From: a virus
Taxonomy: Duplodnaviria; Heunggongvirae; Uroviricota; Caudoviricetes
IMG/VR virus record: IMGVR_UViG_3300005329_000001
Direction: 5' to 3' (one strand)
DNA: 64,000 nt
The position numbers were made by a program, and so were the translations under genes. Position 1 is the stretch's first letter. Every line of letters begins with the position of its first letter. Of this stretch, positions 8,201-64,000 are shown in pieces. The notes below the pieces were generated by a model. The model did no database searches, had not been told where the DNA came from, and saw nothing but the letters and a program-made list of their open reading frames with translations.

Positions 8201-8924
8201 GAACGCTGGAGGCAAGAATCGCTTTGCGCTTGGAGCGCACGGCTATCCGACCGGCTACACGTTCGATATCGCCGAGTACTGGGATCCTGTCCTAGTCAAG
8301 CGCTGGCTTTCGACCGGGGCATACCCGCGCGTCAGCCCGACATCGGGTAACCTGACTACGGCCGGTCAGCCAAGCACGTCTTGGCTGCAGGTTGCTGGCA
8401 CTCCGCTCGCCATGCTGAATAATGGCTGGGGCTGGGGCTGGAACTCGTATCTCGATCTGATCATCCCGTTCCACATCATGATGACCGATCAGGTGAACGG
8501 TCATTTCGAGATGATCATGGACGACAATACCGGAGGAGGAAAGATCATCCTCGGCTACAACTCCGGCTCCATCGGTGGAACCGGATGGCAGGTGTTCTCG
8601 TCGCGAGACGTCTCTCACAACAACATTGCGAGTTTCGGCTCAGCACTTACGAACAGTGCCTGGACGAAGGTCCAGTTTGAGTACCACGGCAGTGCTACAG
8701 CCATCGGGACGGCAAACGGTGCGGCGACAATCCGTGTCTACATTGGTGGTTCTCTTGCCGTCGAAATCATCAATAATCCGGGCGCGTTCATCTATATGCC
8801 GGACAACGACAACGTGGTGAACGAGATTCTCATCAATCTATCGCGCTCCAGTGGAACCGGTAATATCAACCTCGGACCGATGCGCTTCTCATACAACTAC
8901 CTTGATGACAGCATCAACGGCTGA
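5238..8924 (+). CDS. Tail fibre / receptor-binding protein with four internal ~120 aa repeats
   Basis: 1228 aa, rich in G/S/T/N/W. Follows the collar gene. Recurring R(V/L/I)Y...N(A/C/S)xW...W..D units. Confidence 0.6.
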   Translation: MATNVDPRFARGSLNGNASVPRLSNPQIRGSVRRSDPDGSHAQPFWSGLNGTSLVVEVGTIDGGILATVTINFTSNFYSNTVTTVNAASPTHLKWLESDGFPCIQDLHSGAKNYIKITGGTAAPIFGMPVFPSPGGMSRAGDLQPAPGDKTQANPQTTELLTHDENLSTAAVNRAIVGSLQGVDQILSALDREVACWRTIEFTEDSFSGMLAPTNVNSDPTIANLRVHTGAIAQAIADGYSYADIIEIQNSSRQTYYVTNLGTTSKVVPLGVSYGGNGFAPISGPITWGSTGSGIRPDTTAAAQSLKQASTAITSIQGSTLIASGATFQTNRIQPGDHILISGANNNSPLNHNGEFVVINVASETEIEVRPLGYTESKIDPANDAPPALNQSINPGEVYGNISVYIGWGFPLGGKTATTADSFRIWIGLGVLTGGTNAWVRLPIATTLREVISNGFLENPNSSHDPQIAFKNLANEFTQRNQFDAGITLPTLPLNGGFALASRVLAPVTGNDDPFFVLMIETDGVDLFGANYPMRVYFNRTTGGITITTNSKHNRSTDVWTKDVNGTAASRMDMNPAGIKYFQQTASDNSLITSDAWPEIPFIISAASLSSTTGGATPRFELPPTNEGSGAIRLSLLFESNTVGSVGKTRLYVNAQATAYVFTTNAVWDWTSQTWSKDSGSARSTKFTIGVAAGLSGFECRGRSTAGGTWNDSSWDEIALSQFDANIGYTIKGIVSLISVGTPNTPLLFFDGINDQLLSKVNDNVGGSIRVYNRSSSGIVISANCSWSTGGGGVWTADTPGNGGSAIKLIGSQVQFFYNTGGTTWNDSLVGGGWTGYNFLINPTGLDLPHSLVNLGLSLTGASGARTARISGPTYGAGEGSSLLVTLLEEWDPAVGGAKSRIYSGDTNLERRHVINARWDGTNWNQDNAALASYFYQFGSTERVGFKAAGSSPWTEANWSIVDSRDLSTGNQLVKSLKSDLTPLFRAQNAGGKNRFALGAHGYPTGYTFDIAEYWDPVLVKRWLSTGAYPRVSPTSGNLTTAGQPSTSWLQVAGTPLAMLNNGWGWGWNSYLDLIIPFHIMMTDQVNGHFEMIMDDNTGGGKIILGYNSGSIGGTGWQVFSSRDVSHNNIASFGSALTNSAWTKVQFEYHGSATAIGTANGAATIRVYIGGSLAVEIINNPGAFIYMPDNDNVVNEILINLSRSSGTGNINLGPMRFSYNYLDDSING

Positions 8925-9496
8925 TGGACTTCACAACTCTTCATAGCTTCGGTGTGGAGCTGCTCAAAATCGCCGAGACGAAGAGCGAACGAGAGCTCTA
9001 CCAGCGCGTCAAGAAACAGTCTCCGGTCGAGGTGAAGAGGCTGGATGAGGCCGCTGAGTACGGCGGTGGCTACTTCGACCCATCAGGTGAAGGTCACATC
9101 GGCGTCTCGGACAAGAAGTTCGACGCCCTCGCTCATGAGGTTGGGCACGCCAAGAATCATCAGAAGATCTGGGGAAAGCTCATCCAGAGTGTTCCGGCTC
9201 GCCTTGCTTTCCAACTCGCTCCTGCTGCTGGCCTCGTTGCAGGCATGGCAGTAGCTAAAGGAAAGAAGTGGCCTCTGATCATCCCTGCAGCCGCGGTGGC
9301 GCCGATCCTCTTGGCAGAGGCTCTGGCGACCAACACGGGCCACAAGGTCTTGGAGAAGGTGAAGGCGAAGCCGGAGGAGGTGGAGAAGTACCGGACGAAC
9401 TTGCGCTCGGCCTTCTCCACCTACCTCCAGACTCCAATTGCTGCTGCGGCTACTGGAACGCTTGGCTACTTGCTGCAGCGGGCGACGGCAGCCTAA
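8924..9496 (+). CDS. Zn-dependent (HExxH) membrane-associated peptidase-like protein with N-terminal F-x-x-E-L-x-K-I-A leader
   Basis: ALAHEVGHAKN, a downstream candidate third ligand in LLAEALA, and hydrophobic helices. N-terminus reads HSFGVELLKIAE. Confidence 0.6.
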   Translation: MDFTTLHSFGVELLKIAETKSERELYQRVKKQSPVEVKRLDEAAEYGGGYFDPSGEGHIGVSDKKFDALAHEVGHAKNHQKIWGKLIQSVPARLAFQLAPAAGLVAGMAVAKGKKWPLIIPAAAVAPILLAEALATNTGHKVLEKVKAKPEEVEKYRTNLRSAFSTYLQTPIAAAATGTLGYLLQRATAA

Positions 9497-9720
9497 CCAT
9501 CTCTCGCTGAGATCGCGACCTTCATGATCACGTCGAGCATCTTGTCTCTCGACCAGGCCGGTACCCCATTCACTACTGGAAGGGTGATGCCGAGCTGGGT
9601 GAGCAGTCCGTAGAGCTCCTGGTCGCTCATCGAGAGAAGCTGCTCGCTGGTGATCTCGGTGAAGTCTTCCGGCTCCTCCGTATTAGGGCGCCGCGGTAGA
9701 GCAACCTGGTCGGCCGGCAC
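9493..9720 (-). CDS. Hypothetical protein, start uncertain
   Basis: The frame looks coding from about 9780 to the stop at 9493. The nearest start codon is GTG at 9720, with a weak SD. Confidence 0.4.
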   Translation of the reverse strand: MPADQVALPRRPNTEEPEDFTEITSEQLLSMSDQELYGLLTQLGITLPVVNGVPAWSRDKMLDVIMKVAISARDG

Positions 9721-9764
9721 AGGATAGTTGCTGACCTGTACCGGCTTCTCGGGCTCTGGCGGCG

Positions 9765-10961
9765 CTACGAAGGGTACGGGAGGCCGATCTCCTTGAACGT
9801 CGCCTCGGTCCCGAGTTGCTGGGGCTGCTGGGGCAACTGCTTCTCGTAGTACGGGCGGATCATGCACGACACCGCCGCGTCCGTGCCCTTGCTCAGATGG
9901 AGAACCTGGCCCACCATCGAGAGAAGGCCCTCGAGCTGTCGGCTCTGGGCGGCGACCAGGCCCTTCAGCTCGTTGATCTGAGCCTGGAGAGCCGCGGTGT
10001 CACCACCACCCTGCTGCTGTTGCGGCTGACCCATGGCCGGAGGCCCGAAGCCAGCCATCGCCGGCGGGGCGCCGAACCCCTGCGGCTGCTGAGCGTTGCC
10101 GAGGGGCAGCGCCTGCTGTCCGGGGAGCACGCCCGGCTGCGGCGGAGCGCCTTCCGCCGCCTTGCCGCGACCACGGCGATTGCTCGGAGCCTGCGCCGGC
10201 GGGGCCGGAGGCTGGCCGGGAGGGGCCATCTGCGGCTGCTGGGGCGGAGCACCCATCGGAGGAGGCGCCATGGTCGGGGGCGCGCCCATCGCCGGCGGAG
10301 GAGCACCCATGGACGGCGGGGCCATCTGCGGGGGCGGGATCGGCGGGGGAGCGCCCTGCGGCGGGAACGAGGGCTGTTGGGGCTGCTGGTACTGCTGAGG
10401 CGGCGGCTGCATCGGGGGCGGCCCGAACCCCTGCTGGGGCGGGGCAAAGCCCTGCTGAGGAGGAGCGTAGCCCTGCGGCGGCTGCTGCGGGGCGTACCCG
10501 GGCGGCTGGGGCGGCGGACCGAACCCGGCCGGAGGCGGAGGCGGGTTGTAGCCGGGAGCGCCGGGGGGCTGACCGTTCGGGGGACCCATCTGCTGGAAAT
10601 CGGCCATGATGATTCCTTCTCCTTCTTTGGGTTGCAGTGCTCGGCCGTCTTGGACGAACACAGCGAGCCTTTGGATGAACGAGTTGAAGTACGAGTCGTC
10701 GGTGTCGAGCTCCGGCTGGATCCCTAGCAGGTCGCCGGCAATCTGCTTCTTGCGGATCAGCTCGTCCAAGATCCAGTGCGTGACGGTGATGGGCTTCATC
10801 ATCCACACGAACTGGTAGTCCAGACCAAGCTGCCCCCACGCGAATCGACGTTGCACGTGTGACGTCTTACAAACGTCGCGCACGTGCTTCTCTGCTTCGA
10901 TTCGGGTGAGCAAGGATCCGTCCGGCTTCGTGAGCTCGAGAGTGGGTAGTCCGTGATGCAT
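9765..10961 (-). CDS. Pro/Gln/Gly-rich low-complexity protein with small folded N-terminal domain and C-terminal coiled coil; probable internal start at 10607
   Basis: SD GAAGGGGAG before the ATG at 10961. About 200 aa of PPQ/GAPP repeats. A second strong SD (AAGGAGAAGGA) precedes the in-frame ATG at 10607. Confidence 0.75.
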   Translation of the reverse strand: MHHGLPTLELTKPDGSLLTRIEAEKHVRDVCKTSHVQRRFAWGQLGLDYQFVWMMKPITVTHWILDELIRKKQIAGDLLGIQPELDTDDSYFNSFIQRLAVFVQDGRALQPKEGEGIIMADFQQMGPPNGQPPGAPGYNPPPPPAGFGPPPQPPGYAPQQPPQGYAPPQQGFAPPQQGFGPPPMQPPPQQYQQPQQPSFPPQGAPPPIPPPQMAPPSMGAPPPAMGAPPTMAPPPMGAPPQQPQMAPPGQPPAPPAQAPSNRRGRGKAAEGAPPQPGVLPGQQALPLGNAQQPQGFGAPPAMAGFGPPAMGQPQQQQGGGDTAALQAQINELKGLVAAQSRQLEGLLSMVGQVLHLSKGTDAAVSCMIRPYYEKQLPQQPQQLGTEATFKEIGLPYPS

Positions 10962-11174
10962 CTACTCCCCCTTCGTGTCGAGATCCGGCGGCCTGTTCAC
11001 AAGAACACGCGCACCGGCGGAGCCGAACTTATACAAGATCTGCTGTCTCGCTGCCACTGCTGCTTCGTGGGCCTCCTTCCAGTCCCCACACATGTAATTG
11101 GTCATGAGCTTCTGCTCGTCGACCTTGGTGCAGTCGCCGAGCTGCTTGCAGTTGACACACGCCGGCTGAATCAT
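10962..11174 (-). CDS. Small Cys-containing hypothetical protein
   Basis: MIQPACVNCKQLGDC...; ATGA overlap with the upstream gene. Confidence 0.6.
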   Translation of the reverse strand: MIQPACVNCKQLGDCTKVDEQKLMTNYMCGDWKEAHEAAVAARQQILYKFGSAGARVLVNRPPDLDTKGE

Positions 11175-11515
11175 TTCAGCGCGAAGTGCGGCTTGGCGTT
11201 CATGTAGCAAGTGAGGTGTCTCCCCTCGGGGCATGCGTAGACCGTGCAGTGCCCCTTCTGCGGACCGCTGCAGGGAAGCTGGGAGTTCACCATCATCCAG
11301 TTCTTGAGAATCCAATCCTGAAGCTCCGCTCTCGACTCCATGTACAGAAAGCTGTCATCAGGAGGATTGCCAGTCTCTATGAAGTAGATGACGGTCTCCC
11401 GTGGCACGGACCGCTTGAGGCGCATTGGACGACTCCAAGCCGAAGAGAGCTCGAGACGGGCAAGCTCCCAGAGTTCGGTGTCGTTCAGGTCCTGCAGATC
11501 TATCTGTCCTTCCAT
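11171..11515 (-). CDS. Hypothetical protein with C-terminal Cys cluster
   Basis: SD GGAGGAAG before ATG 11515. C-terminus LPCSG...HCTVYACPEGRHLTCY. Confidence 0.65.
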   Translation of the reverse strand: MEGQIDLQDLNDTELWELARLELSSAWSRPMRLKRSVPRETVIYFIETGNPPDDSFLYMESRAELQDWILKNWMMVNSQLPCSGPQKGHCTVYACPEGRHLTCYMNAKPHFALK

Positions 11516-11919: not shown

Positions 11920-11929
11920 CGAGCACCTC

Positions 11930-13224: not shown

Positions 13225-13233
13225 GGTCTTCTC

Positions 13234-13836: not shown

Positions 13837-13837
13837 G

Positions 13838-15642: not shown

Positions 15643-15650
15643 GCTTCCTC

Positions 15651-17101: not shown

Positions 17102-17112
17102 TCTATCCTCCT

Positions 17113-31455: not shown

Positions 31456-32391
31456 GTGAATAAGAGGCCGGACGAGGCGTTCTTCGAGAGCCTGCAAGAG
31501 ACGAAGAAGCAGAAGATCGCGGCCCCAGTAGGGGCAGTCCTCGACACGTCCGGTGTCTTCTCTCCACCAACACCGGTGTCTTCGAAGAACCTCTTCAGCC
31601 ACCCGGACGCTCATCCGGTTGTCTTGGATATGGCGCTGCTCAAGGTCTTCCAGGTTGAGTGGTTCGACTGGCTGTCCGATACGCTCTTCGCCGAAATCGA
31701 GCGGGAGTTCGATACGCACATCAACGCCGGCAACCGTCTCAAGATCATGGCGGCGAAGACGCTGCATGTGATCGATGCGTTCTGGGACCACTGGGAGGTC
31801 TTCGAGAAAGTCATTGCTGGGCTCAATGGCATCGTGCCGCAGGTGGCCCTTCTGCAGCCGCCCGATCTCGCCGCTCTCTATGCTGGGGTCGATATCGCCA
31901 GCGGCATCCGCCAAGAGACGTACAGCGACGAGGTGAAGCGCTATTGCGCCGCAGTCTTCCTGCATGAAGGCGTGACCTACGCCGCCCCTCCTCTCGACTT
32001 CTGCCAAGAGTACATCTCTCAGCCGATCTATCGCTGCCGCGACTGTGAGCAGACCGGCTCGGCACTTCCGCCGTTCGATGGTCACTGCCCGACCTGCACT
32101 CAGAAGTACGAACAGGACAAGGCCTTCTCCCTCAAGCCCGACCCGGACATGAAGGACAAGACCAAGGGCGTGAACCTCGAGTACCACCTCACCTACGAGT
32201 CTCAGCCGACCAAGAAGCGGTTCGAAGAGCTGAGCAAGCTTCCCGCTGAGCAGGCGGCAGACGCGATCCAGGAGACGGCCGAAGATGTCGAGTCGGCTCG
32301 CCTCATCATCGCCACCGACTTCATGAAGTACCGCTCGATGCAGCTCAAGACCCAGCTCGAGAGCCTCAAGGGCTGGTTGGAGGCATCATGA
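31456..32391 (+). CDS. Hypothetical virion-associated protein with Zn-binding CxxC pairs
   Basis: N-terminal AFFESLQETKKQKIAA; CRDC...CPTC. SD AGGAG before GTG. Confidence 0.6.
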   Translation: MNKRPDEAFFESLQETKKQKIAAPVGAVLDTSGVFSPPTPVSSKNLFSHPDAHPVVLDMALLKVFQVEWFDWLSDTLFAEIEREFDTHINAGNRLKIMAAKTLHVIDAFWDHWEVFEKVIAGLNGIVPQVALLQPPDLAALYAGVDIASGIRQETYSDEVKRYCAAVFLHEGVTYAAPPLDFCQEYISQPIYRCRDCEQTGSALPPFDGHCPTCTQKYEQDKAFSLKPDPDMKDKTKGVNLEYHLTYESQPTKKRFEELSKLPAEQAADAIQETAEDVESARLIIATDFMKYRSMQLKTQLESLKGWLEAS

Positions 32392-32996
32392 TCGACGAGG
32401 TCACCAGAGCAGCCTTCGCTGATGAGCTCGCCAAGATCGCAGGGCTCAAGACTGAGGTTGGCAACGTCATCTCCGCCGGCTGGCACGGCACGCCGCAGAA
32501 TCCTCAGAAGTGGATGGGCGAGGGCCTGAAGATCGCGCCGAAGATGGGACGGCTCGGCAAGGCAATGGAGTACGCGTCTTCTCTCGGCGGCGCGACGAAG
32601 TATCTCCCAGTCGGCGGAAAGTCGATGGCGCTTCTCGGCACCGCGGCTATGGCTCCAATGGCTCTGGCGAAGGAAGACCCGACTGGTCACGGCAAGTCCA
32701 GGTTCGAACGCACTACTGGCCTTGTCGGCAATACTCTCGGCGGTCTGGCGGCCTCCGGTGCGATGATTCGACACGGCATCAAGAACCCCTTCGCTTTGGC
32801 TGCTGGGGGGCTCCTTGGGAGCGTGGGCGGCGAGCGTCTCATCACCTCGCCATTCGCCCTCATCCGGCGCGGCTTCCGTCGTCATCCTCCGGCTGTTCTC
32901 CCGCAGCAATCGAATGATGGCGGCTGGCAGAACACGGCTCCAGGCGGCCTCAATACCACGCCCGACGCAGTCGTCGGCCAAGCACAGGCGATGTAA
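32388..32996 (+). CDS. Glycine-zipper membrane-type virion protein with AFADELAKIA leader
   Basis: N-terminal AAFADELAKIAG followed by three Gly/Ala-rich hydrophobic segments. Confidence 0.6.
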   Translation: MIDEVTRAAFADELAKIAGLKTEVGNVISAGWHGTPQNPQKWMGEGLKIAPKMGRLGKAMEYASSLGGATKYLPVGGKSMALLGTAAMAPMALAKEDPTGHGKSRFERTTGLVGNTLGGLAASGAMIRHGIKNPFALAAGGLLGSVGGERLITSPFALIRRGFRRHPPAVLPQQSNDGGWQNTAPGGLNTTPDAVVGQAQAM

Positions 32997-35045
32997 ATGA
33001 GCGACCTCGGTCTCGCTGGCGGCATTGCCAGATTCGATTCGTTTCACGGTCGCCAAGAGGGCGGCGGAGGCGCTCTTCGTTACCCGTCTCCGTTCTTCGA
33101 CATCGGCCACACGTATCTGCCCACCAGCATCAAGCAGATGTTCCGGTGGTGCCGGTACTACTTCCTCACCAACCCGCTGATCAACGCCGTCACTTACAAG
33201 ATGGCGGAGTACCCGATCACGGACATCATCGTCGACGAGGAAGACTCTGAGCAGCGGGCGAAGTGGATCGAGATGATCGAGCACCAGTTCAAGGTGCGTA
33301 CGGTCGAGATCGAAGCCGGCCTGGACTATTACTGCTACGGCATCGCATTCATTTCGCTGCACTTCCCATTCGACAAGTACCTCGTCTGCCCGCACTGCAA
33401 GACGGAGTACAAGGCCAAGGACAAGCGGACCGAGTTCAAGTTCCGCAACCTCAACTACTTCTTGTCCTGCAAGAAGTGCGAGATGGTCGTCCAGGCCAAG
33501 ATCGTCGACAACTACACGAAGAACTATCGGGACATCAAGGTCATCCGGTGGAACCCGGAGTACGTCACCGCTGAGCACAACGACATCACCGGTGAGACGG
33601 CCTACTTCTTCGACATCCCCATGGCGACGAGGAACGACATCCTCATGGGGAAGCGTCACGTAATCGAGTCGATCCCGGACGTCTACATCGAGTCGCTTCG
33701 CTCCAACAAGAGCCTGCGCCTCACCTCGGACAACATGTTCGTGCTGAAGCGACCAACCATCGCTCAGAAGGACATGGGCTGGGGCATGCCCCTCATCCTG
33801 CCTGTCCTCAAGGACACCTTCTACCTGCAGATCTTGCGGAAGGGGCAGGAGGCGATTGCCCAGCAGCACATCGTTCCGCTCCGCATCCTCTTCCCGCAGG
33901 CTGGTGGCGCCGACGCGAGCCCTTACTCGACGACGGACCTCGGCAATTGGCGCAAGAGGATCGAGCAAGAGCTCGCCAAGCAGCGAGTCGACCCGAACTA
34001 CATCCCCATCATGCCGCTACCGGTGGGCAACGAGACGATCGGAGGCGAGGGCAAGGCACTCATGCTTCACCAGGAGATGCGCGCCTGGTCGGAGCAGATC
34101 GTCGCCGGCATGCACGTTCCCATCGAATTCGTCTTCGGCGGCCTGCAGTACTCTGGCTCCAACGTCTCGATGCGCATGCTCGAGAACCAGTTCCTCGGCT
34201 ACCGCACCAACCTCCTCATCATGGTCCGCGACTTCATTCTCGGGAAGATCGCCGACTACATGGAGTGGAACCGCCCGAAGCTGCACTTCAAGCGCTTCAA
34301 GATGGCGGACGATCTGCAGCGTCTCCAGCTCACCTTCCAGATGAACCAGGCGCAGAAGGTCTCGGACACCACGCTCCTCGACGAGGCCGATCTGGACATC
34401 GTTCAGGAAGAGAAGCACAAGAGCGCCGAGATGGCGAAGCAGATGGACAACCAGCGCAAGCAGATGATGGCCTCCGCCGAGCTCCAAGGCGAGACGCTCC
34501 TTGTCCAGACGCGCTACCAGATCCAGGCCCAGAAGCTCATGCAGGCCGCTGGAATGCCTCCGCCAGACCAAGGCGGTGGTGCCCAGAACCAACAGCTTGG
34601 CGACGCCATGAAGCAGTTCGCCGAGGGCCAGCAATTGGGAGGCCCCGGCGGGCCTGGTGGCGGTGGCGACATGCAGCCCAAGGAAGGTGACGACGCCGCC
34701 CCGGGCTTCCCAGAGGGTGTGAAGGCCTACCCGGAGAAGGGCGGGACCATGCCGAACGAGGGCATCCCGATGGAGATGCAGTCGCCGCTCACCCAGGCGG
34801 CTGGCCAAGGTGCTCTATTCAGTCCGCTCTACCTCGCTCGTCGTGCGGCTACGCACTTCGAGAAGATGGATGAGATGACGAAGAACATCGAGCTCATCAA
34901 GATGAAGGGCAAGAACCCGCAACTCTACGGGCTCACCGTTCAGCTCCTCCAAGACGCGAAGGGCTCTCAGACTGATCCGCTTGACCCCGGTCAGTCGCCC
35001 ATGCCAGACATCAAGCCGCCTCGTCGCAAGAACGCTCTCATCTGA
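32997..35045 (+). CDS. Portal protein with inserted Zn ribbon and low-complexity C-terminal extension
   Basis: WCRYYFLTNPLINAV, LDYYCYGIAF, WGMPLILPVLK and IVAGMHVPIEFVFGG match portal helix patterns. CPHC...CKKC insertion. Confidence 0.75.
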   Translation: MSDLGLAGGIARFDSFHGRQEGGGGALRYPSPFFDIGHTYLPTSIKQMFRWCRYYFLTNPLINAVTYKMAEYPITDIIVDEEDSEQRAKWIEMIEHQFKVRTVEIEAGLDYYCYGIAFISLHFPFDKYLVCPHCKTEYKAKDKRTEFKFRNLNYFLSCKKCEMVVQAKIVDNYTKNYRDIKVIRWNPEYVTAEHNDITGETAYFFDIPMATRNDILMGKRHVIESIPDVYIESLRSNKSLRLTSDNMFVLKRPTIAQKDMGWGMPLILPVLKDTFYLQILRKGQEAIAQQHIVPLRILFPQAGGADASPYSTTDLGNWRKRIEQELAKQRVDPNYIPIMPLPVGNETIGGEGKALMLHQEMRAWSEQIVAGMHVPIEFVFGGLQYSGSNVSMRMLENQFLGYRTNLLIMVRDFILGKIADYMEWNRPKLHFKRFKMADDLQRLQLTFQMNQAQKVSDTTLLDEADLDIVQEEKHKSAEMAKQMDNQRKQMMASAELQGETLLVQTRYQIQAQKLMQAAGMPPPDQGGGAQNQQLGDAMKQFAEGQQLGGPGGPGGGGDMQPKEGDDAAPGFPEGVKAYPEKGGTMPNEGIPMEMQSPLTQAAGQGALFSPLYLARRAATHFEKMDEMTKNIELIKMKGKNPQLYGLTVQLLQDAKGSQTDPLDPGQSPMPDIKPPRRKNALI

Positions 35046-48573: not shown

Positions 48574-48687
48574 ATGAGTAAGCCGGATGCCGATCGTACG
48601 AAGGAAATGGACGACATCCAAGCAGAGATCCGAAAGGTCGTCGAGCGCATCGACGCTTCATCGAAGAAGAAGACCAAGGAGCCGTGA
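48574..48687 (+). CDS. 37-aa charged peptide (not in ORF track)
   Basis: MSKPDADRTKEMDDIQAEIRKVVERIDASSKKKTKEP; SD AGGAGG; GTGA coupling to the next gene. Confidence 0.6.
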   Translation: MSKPDADRTKEMDDIQAEIRKVVERIDASSKKKTKEP

Positions 48688-49517
48688 CGACACCTCTCTT
48701 CACCGCCTTCTCCGACGAGTTCCAGCAGATCCAGCGACTGAAGCTCGCGAGTCCGCTTGGTGTCGCAAAGTCGTGGTTGAAGGGGCAGTACGCACAGCTC
48801 GGCAACGCCGCGGCCCAGGCATCCCAAGGACACCAGTCCTTCAGCCCGATGCTTGGTCAGCCCGCTCCACCGATCGTCGGAACGATCACCAACTTCCTCG
48901 CCAACAAGCTGCCGACCCCAAAGAAGCCACCGGGGCCGGTCATCGAGGGAGCCAAGCGCCTTCTTAGCTCTAAGCCGGCGAAGACGATCATCCCCCTCAT
49001 CGATCAAACCAGCGAGTTCTTGAAGCTCGCACAGGTCGAGCCCTACCAACAGAAGACACAATACTCATGCTCAGCGGCGTGTCTGAAGGCCGTGCTCGAG
49101 CACTGGGGAGCCGATCGCTTTGCCGAGCACGAGATCATGTACGCCATCGGCGTGCGCGATCGCGGCGGTGCGGAGGTGGACGAGATCACCCGTGGAGCTC
49201 AGAAGCTCGGCTTCGACGCGTACGACAAGTGCTTCTCGTCCCTCGATGAGGCGAAGGCAATCACCGATCAGGGCATCCCGATCATTGCCGACTTCCAAAG
49301 CTTCAACAACCCTGGCAAGGGGCACTACGTCGTCATCACTCAGATCGACGACAATGTGGTCCATCTGATGGACCCCAACACCGATGGCAACCAGCGTGTT
49401 ATTACACGCGCTGAGTGTGAGCAGCGGTGGTGGGACAAGACCATGGCCCCGCCACACAACCTGATGGTGAAGTGGGGAGTGGTGGTCACCCCAAGGAGTG
49501 GCGATGGGACTCGGTGA
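48684..49517 (+). CDS. C39-family cysteine peptidase behind a K-x-A-bounded leader
   Basis: QQKTQYSCSAACL (Cys), GHYVV (His) and LMDP (Asp). Leader begins AFSDEF...KLAS, and EFLKLAQ directly precedes the domain. Confidence 0.85.
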   Translation: MTTPLFTAFSDEFQQIQRLKLASPLGVAKSWLKGQYAQLGNAAAQASQGHQSFSPMLGQPAPPIVGTITNFLANKLPTPKKPPGPVIEGAKRLLSSKPAKTIIPLIDQTSEFLKLAQVEPYQQKTQYSCSAACLKAVLEHWGADRFAEHEIMYAIGVRDRGGAEVDEITRGAQKLGFDAYDKCFSSLDEAKAITDQGIPIIADFQSFNNPGKGHYVVITQIDDNVVHLMDPNTDGNQRVITRAECEQRWWDKTMAPPHNLMVKWGVVVTPRSGDGTR

Positions 49518-49980
49518 CTTCATCAAGACTAACCCACGTGCCTTCCTCACCGGCGTTGGGGCAGTTGCTGGCGGTGCTGGCGGAGCCGTCCGTGGATTGA
49601 CGATGAAGTCCTGGCATGACCAGTGGCGAGATGTAACGCACCACTATGATGCCGAGCAGAGAAAGAAAAACGCGTGGAAGATGGGGCTCGCTGGCGGAAT
49701 CGCTGGCGGTCTCGTCGGGTACACAACTCCCGTTCATACAGTGCCGGCCTCAGCACTCCCCAAAGCAGTCCCGTCGGCCTTCAAAGGCGTAAAGTCGCAG
49801 AAGGACGTGAAGAAGCTCGTCCGCGAGTTCTCGCTCAAGCACCATCCAGATCGCGGCGGTGATGCCAAGAAGTATCGAGAGTTCATCGACGCCTACAACG
49901 CGTTCAAGAAGCATCCCAAGTTCCCGAAGACGGCCATGGTGGCCTTTGTGGACGAGATGCTCCACATCCTCAATCGATGA
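49498..49980 (+). CDS. Membrane-anchored J-domain (DnaJ-type) protein
   Basis: Two Gly-zipper segments, then VKKLVREFSLKHHPDRGGD...YREFIDAYNAF (HPD). C-terminal KTA-MVAFVDEMLHIL. Start may be 49504. Confidence 0.85.
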   Translation: MAMGLGDFIKTNPRAFLTGVGAVAGGAGGAVRGLTMKSWHDQWRDVTHHYDAEQRKKNAWKMGLAGGIAGGLVGYTTPVHTVPASALPKAVPSAFKGVKSQKDVKKLVREFSLKHHPDRGGDAKKYREFIDAYNAFKKHPKFPKTAMVAFVDEMLHILNR

Positions 49981-51434
49981 GTCGTCTCGCTACCAACCTC
50001 GGGAAGATCGCGGGCGTGGCAGGGCTACAGCCCCATCAGCAGCGTGTTGTCGATCGTATCCAGCAGCCTGACCAGCCGGGCTTGGTGGTGGCGCACGGTC
50101 TCGGTTCTGGAAAGACGAGAACTGCGATCGAGGCTCAGAAGGCTCTCAAGATGCCGTCGGACGTCATCGTTCCGGCAGCACTCCAGGCGAATTACCGCAA
50201 GGAGCAGAAGAAGTGGTTGGGCGGAGCCAAGCAGAAGGCTCATGTCCAGTCGATGCAGAACATCACGAGGAAGCGTCAGGCTCCGACGCAGCCCCTGATG
50301 ATCGTCGACGAGGCTCACCGTGCTCGTGAGCCTCAGACGCAGACCTACAAGACGCTGGCGAAGAACGAGGCCGAGAAGCGCCTGCTTCTGACCGGCAGTC
50401 CATTCTACAACCGCCCGTCTGACATTGCGCCACTCGTAGACCTCGCCTCTGGAGCGCCGTTGCTTCCGACGGACCCGGAGCGGTTCAATCAGAGGTTCAT
50501 TCGTCAGAAGAAGATTAGCCCTGGCATCATCAATCGACTCCGCGGCCTCAAGCCGGGTGTCGTTGAAGAGCTGAACCCCAAGCGCCAGGAAGAGCTTCAA
50601 GGCATCTTCGACAAGTGGGTCGACTATCACCCGTCTGCGAAGGAAGACTTCCCCGAGGTCAATCGTGAGGACGTCAAGGTGCCGATGGACCCGAAGCAGC
50701 TCGAGGTCTACGACACCATCCTGAAGAAGGCGCCACCTTGGGTGTCGGCCAAGATCCGCTCTCGTCTGCCTCCCAGCAAGCGGGAATCCCAGCAGCTCAA
50801 CGCCTTCTTGGGGGCCAGTCGGCAAATCGCCAACTCCACTGCTCCCTTTCAGGAGGACGTGAAGAAGGTCTATGAGCCCAAGCTGGACGAAGCCTTCTCT
50901 CGGTTGCAGCAAGAGCTTGCCGCGAACGAGAGGGCAAAGGCTGTCGTCTACTCCAACTACCTCGGCGCAGGCATCAATCCCTACGCCCAGAGGCTTCAAG
51001 AAGCTGGCATCCCCTACGGCGAGTTCACCGGTGAGATGCCGAAGTCGAAGAGGGACGAGCTCGTCAGGCAGTACAACGAGAACAAAATTCGCGCCCTCTT
51101 GCTCTCTTCGGCCGGTGGAGAAGGTCTCGATCTGCAGGGCACTCGACTCATCCAGATGCTAGAGCCTCACTGGAATGATGAGAAGTTGAAGCAGGTTGAG
51201 GGTCGTGGCATCCGTTACAAGAGCCACGCGATGCTTCCCCCAGAAGAGCGGAATGTGAAGGTCCAGCGGTTCTTGGCGACTCGCCGTCCAACCGGCGTTC
51301 TCGAGAAGCTGCGCCTCAAGAAGCCAGGTGGATCGGTCGACGAGTACCTTGCCGCCAGGGCCCAGGAAAAGGAAAACTTGATCCAACAATTCCGGGCCCT
51401 ACTTGAACAACAGCAGCAGCCTGCAGCACAATAG
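49977..51434 (+). CDS. SNF2-related SF2 helicase/ATPase resembling poxvirus D6/D11 (NPH-I)
   Basis: AHGLGSGKT, IVDEAH, LLTGSP, VVYSNY, GGEGLDL, EPHWN and QVEGRGIRYKSH. N-terminal GKIAG. Confidence 0.8.
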   Translation: MSRLATNLGKIAGVAGLQPHQQRVVDRIQQPDQPGLVVAHGLGSGKTRTAIEAQKALKMPSDVIVPAALQANYRKEQKKWLGGAKQKAHVQSMQNITRKRQAPTQPLMIVDEAHRAREPQTQTYKTLAKNEAEKRLLLTGSPFYNRPSDIAPLVDLASGAPLLPTDPERFNQRFIRQKKISPGIINRLRGLKPGVVEELNPKRQEELQGIFDKWVDYHPSAKEDFPEVNREDVKVPMDPKQLEVYDTILKKAPPWVSAKIRSRLPPSKRESQQLNAFLGASRQIANSTAPFQEDVKKVYEPKLDEAFSRLQQELAANERAKAVVYSNYLGAGINPYAQRLQEAGIPYGEFTGEMPKSKRDELVRQYNENKIRALLLSSAGGEGLDLQGTRLIQMLEPHWNDEKLKQVEGRGIRYKSHAMLPPEERNVKVQRFLATRRPTGVLEKLRLKKPGGSVDEYLAARAQEKENLIQQFRALLEQQQQPAAQ

Positions 51435-52327: not shown

Positions 52328-52881
52328 CGACTCGTGCGGCGTTCGACGAGGCAAAGGACGCCATGGCTTCCATGGACGCCCTCCTCAAGAAGGGGCTCGG
52401 TAAGCCCGGAGTTCAACCACTCGCCGAATTTGTCGGCGGCGGATATGAGCAGGCGATCGAGTACACCCGCGTTGAGCGACCAAAGTACGTCGCCGAAGTC
52501 GGCAAGAGAGATGGGTGCTACATCTACCATTTCTGGCCCCGAACGACTGATCTCTTGCCGACCTTCGGCGACAAGCTGGGCGATGCGATGCTCGCCAGCT
52601 TCAAGTACCCGGAGCGGATAGCCGCGAAGCACGATGAGGTGTGGCGCTGCTTCCAAGGCGACGTAGGCACAACGACAGCTTCGACTCAGCCCCTGTGCCG
52701 CTACTGGGGGGAGGCTGGGGACTTCGCATCAGGGCAGTGCCCAGAGTGCGGCAGCGGCAACGTGGGAGTCTCGATGAGCTCCTGGGCAGTCCGCGTGACG
52801 GGCTATGCAGACAACCCGCTCGCTGACGATCTCGCCGCCAGCGTCTTCGACACCCTAGACCGACTTCTGGAGACCCCATGA
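52324..52881 (+). CDS. Hypothetical protein with CxxC motif
   Basis: ATGA coupling; CPECG. Confidence 0.6.
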   Translation: MTTRAAFDEAKDAMASMDALLKKGLGKPGVQPLAEFVGGGYEQAIEYTRVERPKYVAEVGKRDGCYIYHFWPRTTDLLPTFGDKLGDAMLASFKYPERIAAKHDEVWRCFQGDVGTTTASTQPLCRYWGEAGDFASGQCPECGSGNVGVSMSSWAVRVTGYADNPLADDLAASVFDTLDRLLETP

Positions 52882-53426
52882 GCTACCTCGAGCCGCGCAT
52901 GGATGGGTTCTACGACGAGTTTGAGAAGATCTCAGCTTATTCGAATAAGCGGCTGTTTCGGGATATCGCTCCTCTTATTGGAGGGGCTGGAGCTCTTACC
53001 GGTGCCCTGAGTACTCCATTTGGAAAAAAGACCGACGAGAAGAGCTATGCACTCCGTGCGGGGAAACGAGCACTCGTCGGAGGCGCTATCGGTACTGGTC
53101 TGTCTTTGGGAGGGTCAGCACTCGCAAAGATGGCGCACGAGCTCACCCAGAGCGAGCGCACCGACTTCGCTCAGCCCAAGAAAGAAGAAGAGGGTCACAA
53201 GGGCAAGTACCCCATTCCCGACAAGAAGCACTACGGGATCGCCCTGGGCTTCGCGAAGATGCACCACGATTCTGGCGCCCTGAAGGCCATCCATGCGAAG
53301 GGCAAGGCGATGGGCTACACAAAAGAGGCCGAGGGGTTCGGCTCGCCCAACATCTCCGACGCCGATGAGATGGCGAAGATGGCAGGCCGCAGCCGGCAGA
53401 GGGTCAGCCAGCTTTTTGGGAGATGA
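52878..53426 (+). CDS. Glycine-zipper virion protein with GFYDEFEKIS leader
   Basis: N-terminal DGFYDEFEKISA, two Gly-zipper segments, then AKMAH and TKEAE. Confidence 0.6.
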   Translation: MSYLEPRMDGFYDEFEKISAYSNKRLFRDIAPLIGGAGALTGALSTPFGKKTDEKSYALRAGKRALVGGAIGTGLSLGGSALAKMAHELTQSERTDFAQPKKEEEGHKGKYPIPDKKHYGIALGFAKMHHDSGALKAIHAKGKAMGYTKEAEGFGSPNISDADEMAKMAGRSRQRVSQLFGR

Positions 53427-56925: not shown

Positions 56926-56941
56926 GTGCTGCCCCTTGAAA

Positions 56942-57313: not shown

Positions 57314-57368
57314 CTGTCGTCTCCATGTGAGGGGTACGAACGAAAAAACGTTCGTTCACGTCACACCT

Positions 57369-57396
57369 CTTATCCCGAGACGTTTCAGTTTTTTGC
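57369..57396 (-). promoter_or_regulatory. Candidate phage promoter GCAAAA-N16-GATAAG
   Basis: Exact motif, about 55 nt upstream of ATG 57313. Confidence 0.6.
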
Positions 57397-58086: not shown

Positions 58087-58133
58087 GGTCTTCCTCCTAT
58101 GAATATGATGCTAACTCAGAAGCCGGAGAACTC

Positions 58134-59401: not shown

Positions 59402-59410
59402 GAGCTCAAG

Positions 59411-60040
59411 ATGAACAGCACGCAGCTCATGGAGAAGGTCGCGGAAGTCGCGCCCGAGACGTACGACTTCATCATGCAGACCCGCGGCGAGATCAGCGAG
59501 AGCCCGTGGAAGGACGAGTTCCTCGAGGAGTTCGACGGCATCCTGAAGAAGGCTGCCATGGACTGGAAGTCGATCGGCTCGTCTGTCGGGCAAGGAGGTC
59601 TTGCCATGGCCAAGGGTCTGGGTGCCACGGCACTCGGCGGCATCGGCCTGGCGCTCGCTGGTGACGCCTATGATGCCACTCGTCGAGCCATCACCAAGAC
59701 CCGCAACTACAAGCGGATGATGGCGTCGAACCCAGATCTGAAGGACAAGCCGGCGCACCAGGTCCAGGCAATCTTCTCCACCCTTCACCGCTTCAACCCG
59801 GACTTCTCGGGAGACCCGGTCGTCTCTGGAAGCTTCGTCCGTCAGCATGTCGACATGGCCCAGAGCGAAGAAGGTGTGGGTGCGGTCGGTCTCGACGCCA
59901 TGAAGGCCATCGTCGAAGGGCGCAAGGGTATCAATGAGAGCCGCCGGTTGCCCAAGCCGGAGATGCTCAGGATGCCCGATCGCGAGATGGAGATGCTCCA
60001 GAAGTCCAAGCTTCGCCACGACCTGGGCGCCAAGAAGTAA
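59411..60040 (+). CDS. Putative virion protein with acidic leader, KKAA site and Gly-zipper
   Basis: EKVAE; EFLEEFDGILKKAAM; GLAMAKGLGATALGGIGLALAG. Confidence 0.6.
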   Translation: MNSTQLMEKVAEVAPETYDFIMQTRGEISESPWKDEFLEEFDGILKKAAMDWKSIGSSVGQGGLAMAKGLGATALGGIGLALAGDAYDATRRAITKTRNYKRMMASNPDLKDKPAHQVQAIFSTLHRFNPDFSGDPVVSGSFVRQHVDMAQSEEGVGAVGLDAMKAIVEGRKGINESRRLPKPEMLRMPDREMEMLQKSKLRHDLGAKK

Positions 60041-60043
60041 GCG

Positions 60044-62449
60044 ATGCTCGTCAAGCAGGTTCAGTTCTTCGGCAAGAACGATGAGGGGCAGATCTTCTGC
60101 CAGCCCTTGCTCGATGACGGCTTGGTAAAGACTGCCTCTGCCTCATCGCGAGCGAACCTGCATCCTCAGATCGCCGACTTCGTCAGGACTGTTCGCCCCA
60201 GCAAGCACGGCATCTACGTCCTGGTGAACGCCATGGGCGCCGGCGAGATCTGGGGCTCCAACATCAATGGCGACCACTTCCCTGAGAAGGAGCTGATCCA
60301 CTCTCCGAAGGACTGGGAGAAGCTTCCCGCCACGCGGATGAAGGAGATCGGCAAGAGCTGGGAGTACGGCTTCCCCACCTTCATGGGGGCGCATCCGTAC
60401 AAGCACCACGTCAACAAGGACTCGTCGCGGGCATTCGGCTCGGTCGAGCTCGCCGCGTGGAACCCAAAGATGCATCGCGTGGAGCTGGTGGTCTATCTTG
60501 ACCGCGAGCTCTGCAAGCGTTTCGACGCTCAGGATGTGATCGAGAAGATCGAGCGGGGAGAGTTCCCGGACGTCTCAATGGGCTGCAAGGTGCCCTACGA
60601 CGTCTGCTCGATCTGTCAGCACCGGTCGAAGACTCCGAAGGACTACTGCCACCACGCGAAGAGCATGATGAATGTCATCCTGCCAGATGGCAGGAAGGTG
60701 TTCGTCTACAACCCTCGCCCTCGCTTCTTCGACATCTCCTTCGTCTTCATCGGAGCCGACAAGACGGCCAAGGTCATGGCCAAGCTTGCGTCAAAGGGCA
60801 ATCAGGTCTGCATGGGTGAGTACTGCACCATTCCTCGACTCAGCGTCGATGTTGGTGAGCAGTTCTCGAAGTTCGCCGGTGAGCAAGACCCTACGGCCCC
60901 GCTTCGTGAGGAGCATCCTACCTGGCTCGGCAATCACCAGGACGGGATGTACGACCCGACCTTCAACGACTTCATCGGCAACAAGTCTCGTACTCAGATC
61001 ATTCAAGAGACGAAAGCTGCCAAGCCGGCATTCGAGGCGCGGCTCTATCCTCCGGCTCAGCTCGAGGCAAATGAGTCGTATGACGCGCTCGTCAACCTCG
61101 ACGCTGCTCGTGAGAAGACAGCTTCAGTCAAGACGGCCAATGACCCAATTCAGAAGTTCATCCACGTCCAAGGCATCCCGATCATGCTGGAGTGGTTGAA
61201 GGGTCAGACGCGTAAGTACTACTCAAAGGCCGATCCTTCAAAGGTGACCTACCAGAAGCTGATGAAGGCCGATTACGGCTACATCCCAGCGACCGTAGAT
61301 GCCGATGGCGAGCAGCTCGATGTCTATGTGGGGCCGAGCCGCGATTCAGAGTTCGTCTTCATGATCAATCAGCTCAAGGACGACGGCTCGTTCGATGAGC
61401 GAAAGGTCATGATCGGCTATCGCGATGAGGCGGCGGCAAAGAAGAGCTATCTCGACCATATGCCTGAAAGGCGTCTTGGGCAGGTGTCGAGGACGACAAT
61501 GGGTGAGTTCAAGAAGACCCACCTTGTCAGTGCTCGAAAGGCACGCAAGACCCGCGATGCCGAGGCAGTGAAGATCGCGTCAGCGACGTGCGGATGCCAC
61601 GGACTTGGAGATGATTGCGGCGGTACGGCTGAGAAAGTCGCGCACGCCGTCTTTCCAGGTACGCGTAATTCTGAAAAATCCGCTTCCCATAGGAAGCTGA
61701 GTGAGATCATAAAAACAATACCGGCAGGTCCTTTTTCGAAAGAGACATTGCCAAGACTGGAGAAAGGGGAGAGCTCGATCCCAAACAAGGCGCTGGACGA
61801 GATGGGCAAAATGGATCTTACCGAAGCCCTCTCAACCCCCGCTATGATGGGCATCGTTCTTAAGCCCCATGAGTTTCAGAGGGTGATGCTGGTGCGAATC
61901 GGAGAGAAGCCGCTGGCGGATGAACTCGACAGGAAGGGGGAGGTCTTCGGGCCTTCTTCGGACGTCGACGAGTCCCTGCAGGTGAATCCCGATCGCATCG
62001 ATCGTGCTCTCAAAGACCTCCTTCAGGCTCTGGGCATGGTGGGTGAGCGGTCAGTAGCCGCCACTCCTCTTGCTCGTCGAATGGAGCGTCTTGAAGCACG
62101 CCGTGCCGATCCGCGGAAGAGCGTCGAGAAGACCGCCTCCGCCGATCCCCTCATGAAGAAGCTGTCAGCCGCCTACAACGGCTACCGGCGCAGCATCGTG
62201 AAGAAGGCCACCGCCATCCAGAAGTTCCTCGTCTCCGACCCCCAGCTCGCTCCCGAGTCATTCGGTAGCAGCATGGTGCAGGCCTTCGCCGGTGGGGTCG
62301 ACAAGACGGCCAGCTCGAGCGTGTTCAGCCCCGACTCGCTCGCATACCTGACCGGGGCGCACCACACGGACCGGGCCATCCATATCGCCGATCAAGGCGT
62401 TCGGGTGTCCCTCGCCCAGACGGGCGCACTCGCAGAGGCGCTGTACTAG
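60044..62449 (+). CDS. Prohead (maturation) protease polyprotein with inserted InPase-like domain
   Basis: The N-terminal NGDHF...HPYKHH...VELV...DVSMGC...CSIC...FFDISFVFIGAD fits a phage prohead serine protease. The segment GIPIMLEW...YGYI...DADGEQLDVYVGP...FDERKVMIGY resembles the InPase family. About 10 K-x-A motifs. Confidence 0.7.
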   Translation: MLVKQVQFFGKNDEGQIFCQPLLDDGLVKTASASSRANLHPQIADFVRTVRPSKHGIYVLVNAMGAGEIWGSNINGDHFPEKELIHSPKDWEKLPATRMKEIGKSWEYGFPTFMGAHPYKHHVNKDSSRAFGSVELAAWNPKMHRVELVVYLDRELCKRFDAQDVIEKIERGEFPDVSMGCKVPYDVCSICQHRSKTPKDYCHHAKSMMNVILPDGRKVFVYNPRPRFFDISFVFIGADKTAKVMAKLASKGNQVCMGEYCTIPRLSVDVGEQFSKFAGEQDPTAPLREEHPTWLGNHQDGMYDPTFNDFIGNKSRTQIIQETKAAKPAFEARLYPPAQLEANESYDALVNLDAAREKTASVKTANDPIQKFIHVQGIPIMLEWLKGQTRKYYSKADPSKVTYQKLMKADYGYIPATVDADGEQLDVYVGPSRDSEFVFMINQLKDDGSFDERKVMIGYRDEAAAKKSYLDHMPERRLGQVSRTTMGEFKKTHLVSARKARKTRDAEAVKIASATCGCHGLGDDCGGTAEKVAHAVFPGTRNSEKSASHRKLSEIIKTIPAGPFSKETLPRLEKGESSIPNKALDEMGKMDLTEALSTPAMMGIVLKPHEFQRVMLVRIGEKPLADELDRKGEVFGPSSDVDESLQVNPDRIDRALKDLLQALGMVGERSVAATPLARRMERLEARRADPRKSVEKTASADPLMKKLSAAYNGYRRSIVKKATAIQKFLVSDPQLAPESFGSSMVQAFAGGVDKTASSSVFSPDSLAYLTGAHHTDRAIHIADQGVRVSLAQTGALAEALY

Positions 62450-62501
62450 AGATGGAGTCCATCTCGGAGACGACACGCTTTTGTCGAGAAGGAGAAATTA
62501 C

Positions 62502-63494
62502 ATGAGCATGGATACGTGGCTGGCCCAGGCGTACAACACCAACGGCGCGAGCGAGGACCTCGAGAAGATCGCTCAGGCCGAGATGGCGCAGAACATGGCC
62601 CAGCAGGAGGGCCTGGATCTGTCGAACCTCTCGCCCGAGCAGATCGAGGCTCTTGGCCAGGAAGTTCTCGGGCCGCAGGGCCAGGGACAGCAGCCGCAGG
62701 GTGCCGCTCCGGGCGCTCCTCAGCAGCCCGGCGTTCCCCAGCAGGGAATGCAGCCCCAGCAGCCGCAGGCTCCTGGTGCCGAGGGCGGTGGTGAGCTGAC
62801 CGAAGAGCACGTGCAGGAAGCCCAGCAGGTGCTGGCCAACCCGCAGGCCTACGACCCGGCGATCGTCCAGGAAGCCCAGGCGATCATGCAGGTCGTCGAG
62901 CAGATGCAGGCTCAGCAAGCCGGTCAGCCAGGTCCCGAGATGGCCAAGGTCGCCGAGGCCCAGGCCAAGTTCGAGGAGGCCGACTTCCTCGGTCGCGTCA
63001 TGGCGCACGCCTTCAATCAGGAGTCGGAGAAGATCGCCGCCTCCAAGCAGGCGAACATGATGGGCGCCGCAGGTGGCCACCTGAAGCACCTCGGCCAGCA
63101 GGCTGCTCACCACATGGGCGCTGCCGCCGGCGCCGCCAAGCACCACGCTGGCAAGGCGATGGGAGCCGCGGGCGGTCACTTCGCCAAGCACCCGGGTCAT
63201 GCTGCTGCCGCCGGCGCGGTCGGTGGTGCGGCGGCCATGCACGGCGCTCATCACATGATGAACAAGGAAGCCACCGTCGCCGCGATCGAGAAGGCGGCGA
63301 TGCAGCAGGCCGCCAACATCCTGCAGGCCAACGGCATCGACCCGGCGACTGGTCAGCCGGCCCAGCAGGCCGCTCCGCAGATCGCTCCGGCGGGCGCGGT
63401 CCCGGCTCCCCAGCAGAACTCGCAGCAGGCGCTCGGTGAGCTCGTGGAGAAGCGCGCTCATCAGATCCTGCGGGGGCTCGGCTACAACATCTGA
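62502..63494 (+). CDS. Scaffold-like protein, Q/P/A/H-rich, with K-x-A motifs
   Basis: Directly follows the protease; SD AAGGAG. EKIAQ, AKVAE, EKIAASKQAN, NKEAT and EKAA. Confidence 0.55.
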   Translation: MSMDTWLAQAYNTNGASEDLEKIAQAEMAQNMAQQEGLDLSNLSPEQIEALGQEVLGPQGQGQQPQGAAPGAPQQPGVPQQGMQPQQPQAPGAEGGGELTEEHVQEAQQVLANPQAYDPAIVQEAQAIMQVVEQMQAQQAGQPGPEMAKVAEAQAKFEEADFLGRVMAHAFNQESEKIAASKQANMMGAAGGHLKHLGQQAAHHMGAAAGAAKHHAGKAMGAAGGHFAKHPGHAAAAGAVGGAAAMHGAHHMMNKEATVAAIEKAAMQQAANILQANGIDPATGQPAQQAAPQIAPAGAVPAPQQNSQQALGELVEKRAHQILRGLGYNI

Positions 63495-63507
63495 GGTCTC
63501 AGGGTGC

Positions 63508-63541
63508 CCGAGGCGGGAGGGGATGGTCCTTCCCGCCTCGG
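63508..63541 (+). other. Strong intergenic hairpin without U-tract
   Basis: CCGAGGCGGGAGGG...CCTTCCCGCCTCGG; its stem is nearly identical to that of the 37.87 kb terminator. Confidence 0.6.
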
Positions 63542-63559
63542 TTCCTCTCAGGAGAGAAG

Positions 63560-64000
63560 ATGCCGAAGTGGATCCACGATCGTGCGGCACACATCAGGGC
63601 GGAGAACCCCTCCATGCCTGAGAGTGAGTCGTGGGCGATCGCCACTCAGCAGTCCCATGCGACGGGACACTCTCCAAAGGGGTACGGAACGGCGAAGGGG
63701 CGGCACGAGGCTCATCAGAAGTATCCGACGCCCGGTGATGACGAACAGAAGGCGAGTCCCAAATCCAAGACGGCTGGCATTTCGGTGCCCTTCAGCTCGG
63801 ATTTGGTAAGCGGCTTCTGTGAGGAACTGTCTTCGATCTTCCGTGAGAAGACAGCCGGTCTCCTGCCCATGCCGGAGAACGGTCTCACACAGATGAAGCT
63901 GACGAGCCCGAAGCCGACCATGGGCGCGAAGAAGAACATCGCGGCGTACTCGCAGCCGAAGAATCTCCCCTCGACTTCGCCGTCGCAGGGAACTCAACCG
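63560..64000 (+). CDS. 3'-truncated putative virion protein with K-x-A motifs (not in ORF track)
   Basis: SD AGGAGAG. MPKWIHDRAAHI...SKTAG...GFCEELSSIFREKTAG...; the frame stays open to the window end. Confidence 0.7.
   Translation, partial: MPKWIHDRAAHIRAENPSMPESESWAIATQQSHATGHSPKGYGTAKGRHEAHQKYPTPGDDEQKASPKSKTAGISVPFSSDLVSGFCEELSSIFREKTAGLLPMPENGLTQMKLTSPKPTMGAKKNIAAYSQPKNLPSTSPSQGTQP

Follow-up and report, generated by a model that had tools for sequence, protein, structure and literature searches.

Introduction

In bacteriophage T4, a capsid-targeting sequence (CTS) on the internal proteins IPI-III, Alt and gp24 is removed by the prohead protease gp21 (Mullaney and Black 1996, reviewed in PMC5694885), and the known gp21-type proteases cut after Glu, namely at L/I-x-E in T4 and at A/S/G-x-E in phiKZ and SPN3US (PMC5694885). 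In phiKZ, 201phi2-1 and SPN3US, gp21-like proteases remove the propeptides of head and ejection proteins by cutting at (S/A/G)-x-E (PMC5694885, PMC10052503). Here we analyze a short peptide, in the following called the leader, that recurs on unrelated proteins encoded in a 64,000-nucleotide stretch of DNA (the window) from the Caudoviricetes record IMGVR_UViG_3300005329_000001 and in the relatives of this virus. The window comprises bases 53814-117813 of one 210,330-bp contig of an uncultured virus with 60% GC. On balance we favor the view that the leader is a targeting propeptide of the T4 CTS type with a new consensus and a new putative cut site.

Like the T4 CTS, the leader is a short N-terminal peptide of 10-20 residues on otherwise unrelated proteins and ends in what would be the cut motif of the head protease, here K-x-A. 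The internal proteins of T4 are small and basic. Small basic cargo is likewise found here, and the protease fold is common to both systems (Z 9.5 to 5JBL). However, the leader consensus is unrelated in sequence to MKTYQEFIAE and has no Glu at the putative P1 position, the cut would fall after a small residue behind K-[I/T/V/L] instead of after Glu in (L/I)-x-E, and the phage belongs to a different, Arash-like clade with a fused beta-beta' RNA polymerase in its structural operon. The present phage resembles phiKZ, 201phi2-1 and SPN3US, large phages that package an RNA polymerase together with many ejection proteins, have multiple cut sites in many head proteins and encode a protease that trims its own C-terminus, to which the conserved KTAKVMAKLAS at the end of the protease domain described below may be compared; in some of their ejection proteins the propeptide is followed by a membrane segment. 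In contrast to the leader, a single 10-residue consensus on at least 44 families, their propeptides are mostly longer than 100 residues, have no one short consensus and are cut after Glu.

Results and discussion

A leader peptide recurs at the N-termini of unrelated proteins

The capsid protein of this phage matched over 130 IMG/VR contigs at 62-88% identity, among them several with a length of 177-199 kb. These relatives stem from environmental metagenomes, and Salmonella phage Arash was the only cultured relative found (28% capsid-protein identity). A seed hidden Markov model (HMM) run on the six-frame open reading frames (ORFs) of the capsid-matched relatives yielded 98 distinct leader instances, 81 of which have an ATG 2-9 codons upstream. 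The resulting consensus, [A/G/S]-F-x-D-E-L-x-K-I-[A/G/S], carries 3-4 bits of information at the F, D, E, L, K and I positions and drops to about 0.5 bit from the residue after [AGS] onward. The 94 cargo sequences fall into 44 BLAST clusters, in line with the proposal of an earlier note on this DNA that a reusable helix tags unrelated proteins, and these counts describe a short N-terminal peptide common to unrelated proteins of one phage, as in the T4 type. The cargo has a median length of 86 amino acids, and 95% of it is net positive with a median charge of +7.5, compared to 42% and -1 for the proteins of the whole genome. One cargo family occurs both stand-alone with an N-terminal leader and fused behind another module.

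Between five and nine leader matches are present per near-complete genome; the five closest near-complete relatives have 6-8 each, all 34 of them on the strand that encodes the major capsid protein (MCP). Furthermore, a degenerate DNA pattern for F-x-D-E-L-x-K-I-A, in which Leu was coded as CTN and Ala as GCN so that its counts are lower bounds, matched at least 119 stretches. Among the matches listed for this pattern, the GC content of the contigs ranges from 0.34 to 0.70, and most have an [AGS] before F, which the pattern did not require, as well as an ATG a few codons upstream. At the protein level, conservation of the leader thus extends over a large group of phages. Searches of the leader-bearing proteins against Pfam and PHROGs gave no family except C39 on the protein at 48684. 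No mention of the motif was found in the literature searched, for which the statement that it is not a described signal holds, and string searches returned one unrelated designed protein.

In the genome analyzed here, 272 genes were called with a codon-usage model trained on the phage's own genome; plus-strand blocks contain structural and late genes and minus-strand blocks replication genes. The pattern F..E[LF]..I has 11 matches in the 272-protein proteome, of which seven lie at residues 9-11 (by chance about 1.3% of positions), arguing that the leader pattern did not arise by chance. Three copies that the earlier note does not list are located beyond the window at genome positions 31349, 31564 and 126674 (LFDELTKIA), the first two being among these seven. 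The annotated starts of the leader genes are backed by Shine-Dalgarno sequences or stop-start overlaps, and leader paralogues within the genome differ at synonymous sites, which indicates that selection acts on the peptide. The expectation that an HMM scan would return virion proteins was borne out insofar as all leader genes lie on the late/structural strand and none is found among the 142 minus-strand genes.

These properties also bear on the question whether the leader acts outside the virion, for example by directing glycine-zipper proteins to membranes, as a tag for regulated degradation or by binding a phage chaperone. Several cargo proteins do have glycine-zipper or hydrophobic segments, and a J-domain protein is encoded nearby. 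However, an uncharged stretch of 18 residues occurs in only 15% of the cargo, the leader is acidic and amphipathic and not hydrophobic, its genes are part of head and late operons on the MCP strand, and relatives that have retained the leader lack a homologue of the J-domain protein. A role of this kind is thus very unlikely.

Individual copies in the window

Nine strings had originally been put forward as one motif. All of them are in frame on the plus strand and eight start at the positions given in the earlier note, while the string in the J-domain protein begins at 49924 and not at 49927. When the copies were sorted by our own gene calls and by the bit scores of the seed HMM, the single motif broke up into three canonical leaders, two looser N-terminal copies, three internal copies and one unsupported string. 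All features named in the following are on the plus strand.

The canonical leaders, with their strings at 8945, 32412 and 52905, occupy residues 8-19 of their proteins. MSYLEPRMDGFYDEFEKIS (52878-52934) has the highest score of the three, 25.0 bits, and forms the N-terminus of a basic protein of 182 amino acids with a glycine-zipper-like segment (gene 52878-53426). MIDEVTRAAFADELAKIA (32388-32441; 21.9 bits) begins a Gly-rich basic protein of 202 amino acids (gene 32388-32996), whose ATG is preceded at a distance of 6 nucleotides by GGAGG and whose orthologues in the relatives L092 and L096 retain the leader. MDFTTLHSFGVELLKIA (8924-8974; 21.7 bits) is the N-terminus of a basic protein of 190 amino acids (gene 8924-9496), and the start codon of this gene overlaps the stop codon of the upstream gene. 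In this protein an HEVGH motif is followed by two hydrophobic stretches. It could be a small membrane-associated metallopeptidase, a candidate assignment with no family match behind it.

Of the looser N-terminal copies, the variant MTTPLFTAFSDEFQQIQRLKLA (48684-48749; 3.5 bits) belongs to the C39 peptidase (gene 48684-49517), and MNKRPDEAFFESLQETKKQKIA (31456-31521) to an acidic, Cys-rich protein of 311 amino acids (gene 31456-32391), the orthologues of which keep F-[FY]-E-x-L with K-x-A later on. A degenerate leader absent from the earlier note, MSRLATNLGKIA (49977-50012), is present on the SNF2-type helicase (gene 49977-51434), which was recognized by its Pfam helicase domains.

The internal strings are of different kinds. 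That at 59519, residue 37 of a glycine-zipper protein of 209 amino acids (gene 59411-60040), is the second conserved K-x-A site of this product, FLEEFDGILKKAA, and the protein has an N-terminal site of its own, MNSTQLMEKVA (both sites within 59411-59557); its orthologues have LM(E/Q)KVA or, in distant ones, MNPVEEFLxEKTA, plus E-L-D-x-I-x-K-[KT]-A. The leader-like helix AFNQESEKIA (63009-63038; 9.8 bits) lies at residue 170 of the scaffold-like protein (gene 62502-63494). Finally, a degenerate copy, GFCEELSSIFREKTA (63812-63856), is found at residue 85 of the product of gene 63560-64030, which extends beyond the window, and is preceded by a KTA site. In the orthologues of this gene the copy is the canonical GFSDELQKIA, which either begins a small basic protein that stands alone or follows a fused module that starts with MPKWIHDRA. 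This module of about 60 residues, MPKWIHDRAxHIxAxNPxMxES..AIATQQxH..KSPKGYGT (window 63560-63800), is conserved in the relatives L130, L013, L017, L019 and L074, matched no family name, and precedes the K-T-A site and the internal leader; in L130 it is fused ahead of the SNF2 helicase. Internal translation starts were considered for the internal copies and rejected, as the internal ATG of the scaffold has no Shine-Dalgarno sequence upstream and a GTA codon precedes the copy in gene 63560.

The C-terminal string of the J-domain protein, PKTAMVAFVDEMLHILNR (49924-49977), was rejected as a leader copy. With 2.2 bits, without K-I-A and with no homologue of the protein in five relatives, it is indistinguishable from chance. 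The proposed orientation independence of the signal is therefore not supported.

The K-x-A motif is enriched in head proteins

The earlier note had placed the leader on the side that a cut at K-x-A would remove. Consistent with such a link, the leader ends in K-I-[AGS], matching a K-x-A motif that is enriched in proteins of the head module only. The plus-strand proteins contain 104 K[ITVL]A sites, compared to 49 expected from shuffles (2.1-fold, z 8.5), and the minus-strand proteins 40, compared to 34 expected; no enrichment was seen for the reversed motif A[ITVL]K or for R[ITVL]A. Putative core proteins, the scaffold and the protease account for most of the excess: the motif was counted 7, 8 and 5 times in the proteins at window positions 29474, 46540 and 58134 (0.8, 1.0 and 0.6 expected), 9 times in the protease (60044; 1.4 expected), 3 times in the scaffold (62502; 0.4 expected) and 9 times in a 517-amino-acid protein just beyond the window (1.5 expected). 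The giant tail proteins, RNA polymerase, reductase and portal are at expectation. Family and structure searches gave nothing convincing for the putative core proteins at 29474, 46540 and 58134.

The same motif is found in Arash. Observed and expected K-x-A counts are 9 and 1.4 for gp220 and 6 and 0.9 for gp225, gp223 has four sites, and the capsid protein contains GLVKEAG. The leader gave no match in Arash, the best score being 6.7 bits in a non-coding frame. K-x-A-rich head proteins without a leader suggest that the putative cut motif is older and more widespread than the leader, which in turn suggests a function of the leader beyond that of a cut site.

This bears directly on whether the leader is only an extended recognition and cut site for the prohead protease, for example as a pro-sequence that keeps enzymes or membrane-active proteins inert, with entry into the head being set by other parts of the proteins. 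The leader does end in the motif enriched in head proteins, P5 and P9 are hydrophobic also in other head proteins, at many of the K-x-A sites near their N-termini, and two putative peptidases as well as glycine-zipper proteins among the cargo might need masking. However, the 57 other candidate sites resemble x-[E/V]-K-[L/T/I/V]-A-S-A, with Ser at P1' in 20 of them, and hold no information at P9, P7 and P6; in the leader, by contrast, the residues F (P9), D (P7), E (P6), L (P5) and I (P2) are fixed. The near-invariance of these five residues exceeds the constraint at the general sites, so that the leader constitutes a distinct class that has only the K-x-small ending in common with them. Moreover, the Arash head proteins are rich in K-x-A without any leader, and most of the cargo is short, basic and of no known family, with no evident activity to mask. 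From the sequence comparison, the leader appears to be more than a cut site, and we regard a role in cleavage alone as unlikely.

A prohead protease domain with the T4 gp21 fold

The presence of a gp21-type protease in this phage, on which the T4 analogy depends, was confirmed at the level of predicted structure. The domain (60044-60793) comprises residues 1-250 of an 801-amino-acid protein (gene 60044-62449), matches phrog_18299 (E 2.4e-6) and is conserved in about 40 relatives. An AlphaFold2 model was built from 27 sequences with a predicted local distance difference test (pLDDT) score of 75.8. Foldseek returned T4 gp21 (5JBL) as the top match with a probability of 0.98, and 5JBL was also top in VIA-align (Z 9.5, root-mean-square deviation 2.7 Å, 130 of 165 residues); the next unrelated fold scored 5.7 and herpesvirus proteases about 5. 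The modeled domain thus has the T4 gp21 fold. H121, H122 and S178 (in DVSMG) are invariant in the 27 sequences and are candidate catalytic residues. Searches of PDB sequences with the capsid protein and the protease domain found nothing. The protease family is present in five of five divergent low-GC contigs that bear leaders, and it is also encoded by Arash.

By analogy to T4, this domain would be the enzyme that cuts after K-x-A. K-x-A sites are located at domain borders, as in SEFLKLA before the C39 domain and in the invariant GADKTAKVMAKLAS closing the protease domain. Cutting after K-x-Ala would give the gp21 fold a new specificity, one closer to the Ala|Ser sites of herpesviruses. The herpesvirus assemblin cuts its M-site at (V/L/I)-x-A|S, and the tail of the scaffold beyond the cut binds the major capsid protein. 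The two systems are alike in protease fold (Z about 5), in Ala at P1, often followed by Ser, and, on the reading proposed here, in that attachment would be mediated by a short helix which the cut releases. The herpesvirus element is, however, C-terminal and confined to the scaffold, it is not a portable N-terminal tag, and Lys at P3 is not a herpesvirus feature.

In the relatives (L012-L087), ORFs with the protease domain range from 529 to more than 1100 amino acids, which suggests that the C-terminal extension varies greatly in length. In the present phage the extension contains an InPase domain (PF18823) with K-T-A and K-I-A sites on either side, and the gene may encode a polyprotein in which the passengers behind the protease can be exchanged. 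In Arash (OQ632216, 145213-150170; L122/L123), VLEKVA directly follows the protease domain.

The leader consensus recurs inside the scaffold

The most conserved island in 33 scaffold sequences, KFEEADFLGRVMAHA[FY].QEL.KIA (also noted as KFEEADFLGRVMAHAF.QEL.KIA), is the leader consensus within a longer helix. We speculate from this resemblance that cargo leaders may mimic the scaffold helix to join the core; the scaffold as the binding partner of the leader is a guess. A complex prediction that paired the capsid protein with residues 1-40 of the protein at 32388 scored 0.00 and gave no answer, speaking neither for nor against binding. Cargo-loading peptides of encapsulins resemble the leader in that a short portable peptide takes diverse cargo into a shell of the HK97 fold, and differ from it in being usually C-terminal, uncleaved and of unrelated consensus.

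The scaffold island, the internal copies and the K-I-A in the uniformly conserved N-terminal region of the capsid protein would also fit a leader that is a permanent, uncleaved docking helix and anchors small basic proteins to the scaffold, to the portal or to the inside surface of the capsid, with K-I-A as part of the interface. The sharp loss of conservation after [AGS] and the small residue at this position fit processing better, as do the K-x-A sites at the borders of the C39 and protease domains, and a gp21-fold protease co-occurs with the leader. Permanent docking therefore seems improbable to us.

C39 peptidase and SNF2 helicase as putative cargo

The product of gene 48684-49517 matches the C39 peptidase family (Pfam PF03412, E 2.6e-14). 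A second K-x-A site, SEFLKLA (49011-49031), directly precedes its peptidase domain, and the orthologue in L125 begins with MNLSEIHRRSIEFTKTA directly ahead of the domain. This orthologue (G002:C1:127728-131324) lies in an open frame of 1253 amino acids that is broken by one TAG, which could be a fusion, readthrough or an assembly error.

Bacteriocin leaders of the double-glycine type have the consensus LSxxELxxIxGG, and the E-L-x-x-I spacing in the core of the phage leader is the same. With a C39 peptidase encoded in the window, the leader might be read by this enzyme or by a C39-ABC exporter of the host, and the cargo would be processed or exported and not packaged. This explanation is largely refuted and has very little probability left: no Gly-Gly follows I, the positions past [AGS] are unconserved, and the C39 gene was found in only two of the five near-complete relatives, all five of which keep leaders (6-8 matches). 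The C39 protein itself bears a leader and therefore looks like cargo, not like the processing enzyme, for which role it was rejected.

The SNF2 helicase orthologues in L143, L146 and L083 have a canonical leader of the AFVDELEKIA type directly before the conserved LLPHQQRVV, and in the L130 orthologue the leader is located behind the fused MPKWIHDRA module. Arash gp217 is the orthologue of the helicase at 49977-51434. By mass spectrometry (MS) it was abundant in an Arash virion preparation, with 38 unique peptides and 1148 spectra, and both RNA polymerase subunits were detected there as well (PMC10585845).

Genome setting

The window encodes a gpA-type large terminase, a class II ribonucleotide reductase, the SNF2-type helicase, the C39 peptidase and the fused beta-beta' RNA polymerase of 2118 amino acids. 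The portal (window 32997-35045) matches the Arash portal with E 2e-77, and the gene of the MCP (phrog_2522) lies just beyond the window (L004:2544-3662). The reductase gene, with a TSCPD domain (35119-37854), is located in a late operon between the portal and RNA polymerase genes; its product has one K-x-A site only and no leader. A protein of 272 amino acids (genome 32560-33378, L002), encoded next to two leader-bearing genes, is a homologue of Arash gp10 and has HVKTA at residues 24-28. Arash gp10 is annotated as a sigma factor and was seen in the virion MS data.

Proposed function of the leader

We propose that the leader, (M-x(2-9))-[AGS]-F-x-D-E-L-x-K-I-[AGS], acts as an N-terminal propeptide in the manner of the T4 capsid-targeting sequence. 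Its probable structure is an amphipathic helix, one face of which presents F, L and I, and this helix would dock the protein into the assembling prohead core. The gp21-fold prohead protease would then cut after K-I-[AGS], and the mostly small and basic cargo would remain in the head beside the DNA.

Several points weigh against this proposal. The internal copies in the scaffold and in the product of gene 63560 mean that the motif is not confined to N-terminal tags. A leader is absent from the portal and from the large virion RNA polymerase, and it is therefore not the general route into the head. In relative G008, two strong leader matches lie on the strand opposite to the MCP. The K-I-A of the MCP itself is part of an N-terminal stretch that is conserved throughout, with no sign of a removable propeptide. 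As 116 proteins, metabolic enzymes among them, were listed for the preparation of Arash particles (PMC10585845), detection is weak proof of packaging and the helicase data are suggestive only. Cleavage and packaging of the leader proteins are both derived by analogy.

Taken together, we tentatively arrive at a joint picture, which we hold as plausible and not as probable, in which a large group of uncultivated phages of 130-210 kb (GC 0.34-0.70) uses a portable capsid-loading tag, undescribed in the papers searched, that would mimic the most conserved helix of the scaffold and would be removed by a gp21-fold protease shifted from cutting after Glu to cutting after K-x-Ala, nearer to the Ala|Ser sites of herpesviruses. 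The Arash virion MS data make the putative cut motif checkable in a cultured distant relative. If the proposal is true, the leader would be a second, sequence-unrelated case of the T4 capsid-targeting principle, combined with a new cleavage specificity of the gp21/assemblin fold, and a compact tag for loading foreign cargo into large capsids. It would define the set of injected proteins, among them a helicase, peptidases and dozens of small basic proteins, and one short motif would suffice to read from sequence which proteins are packaged or injected throughout a group of large uncultured phages.

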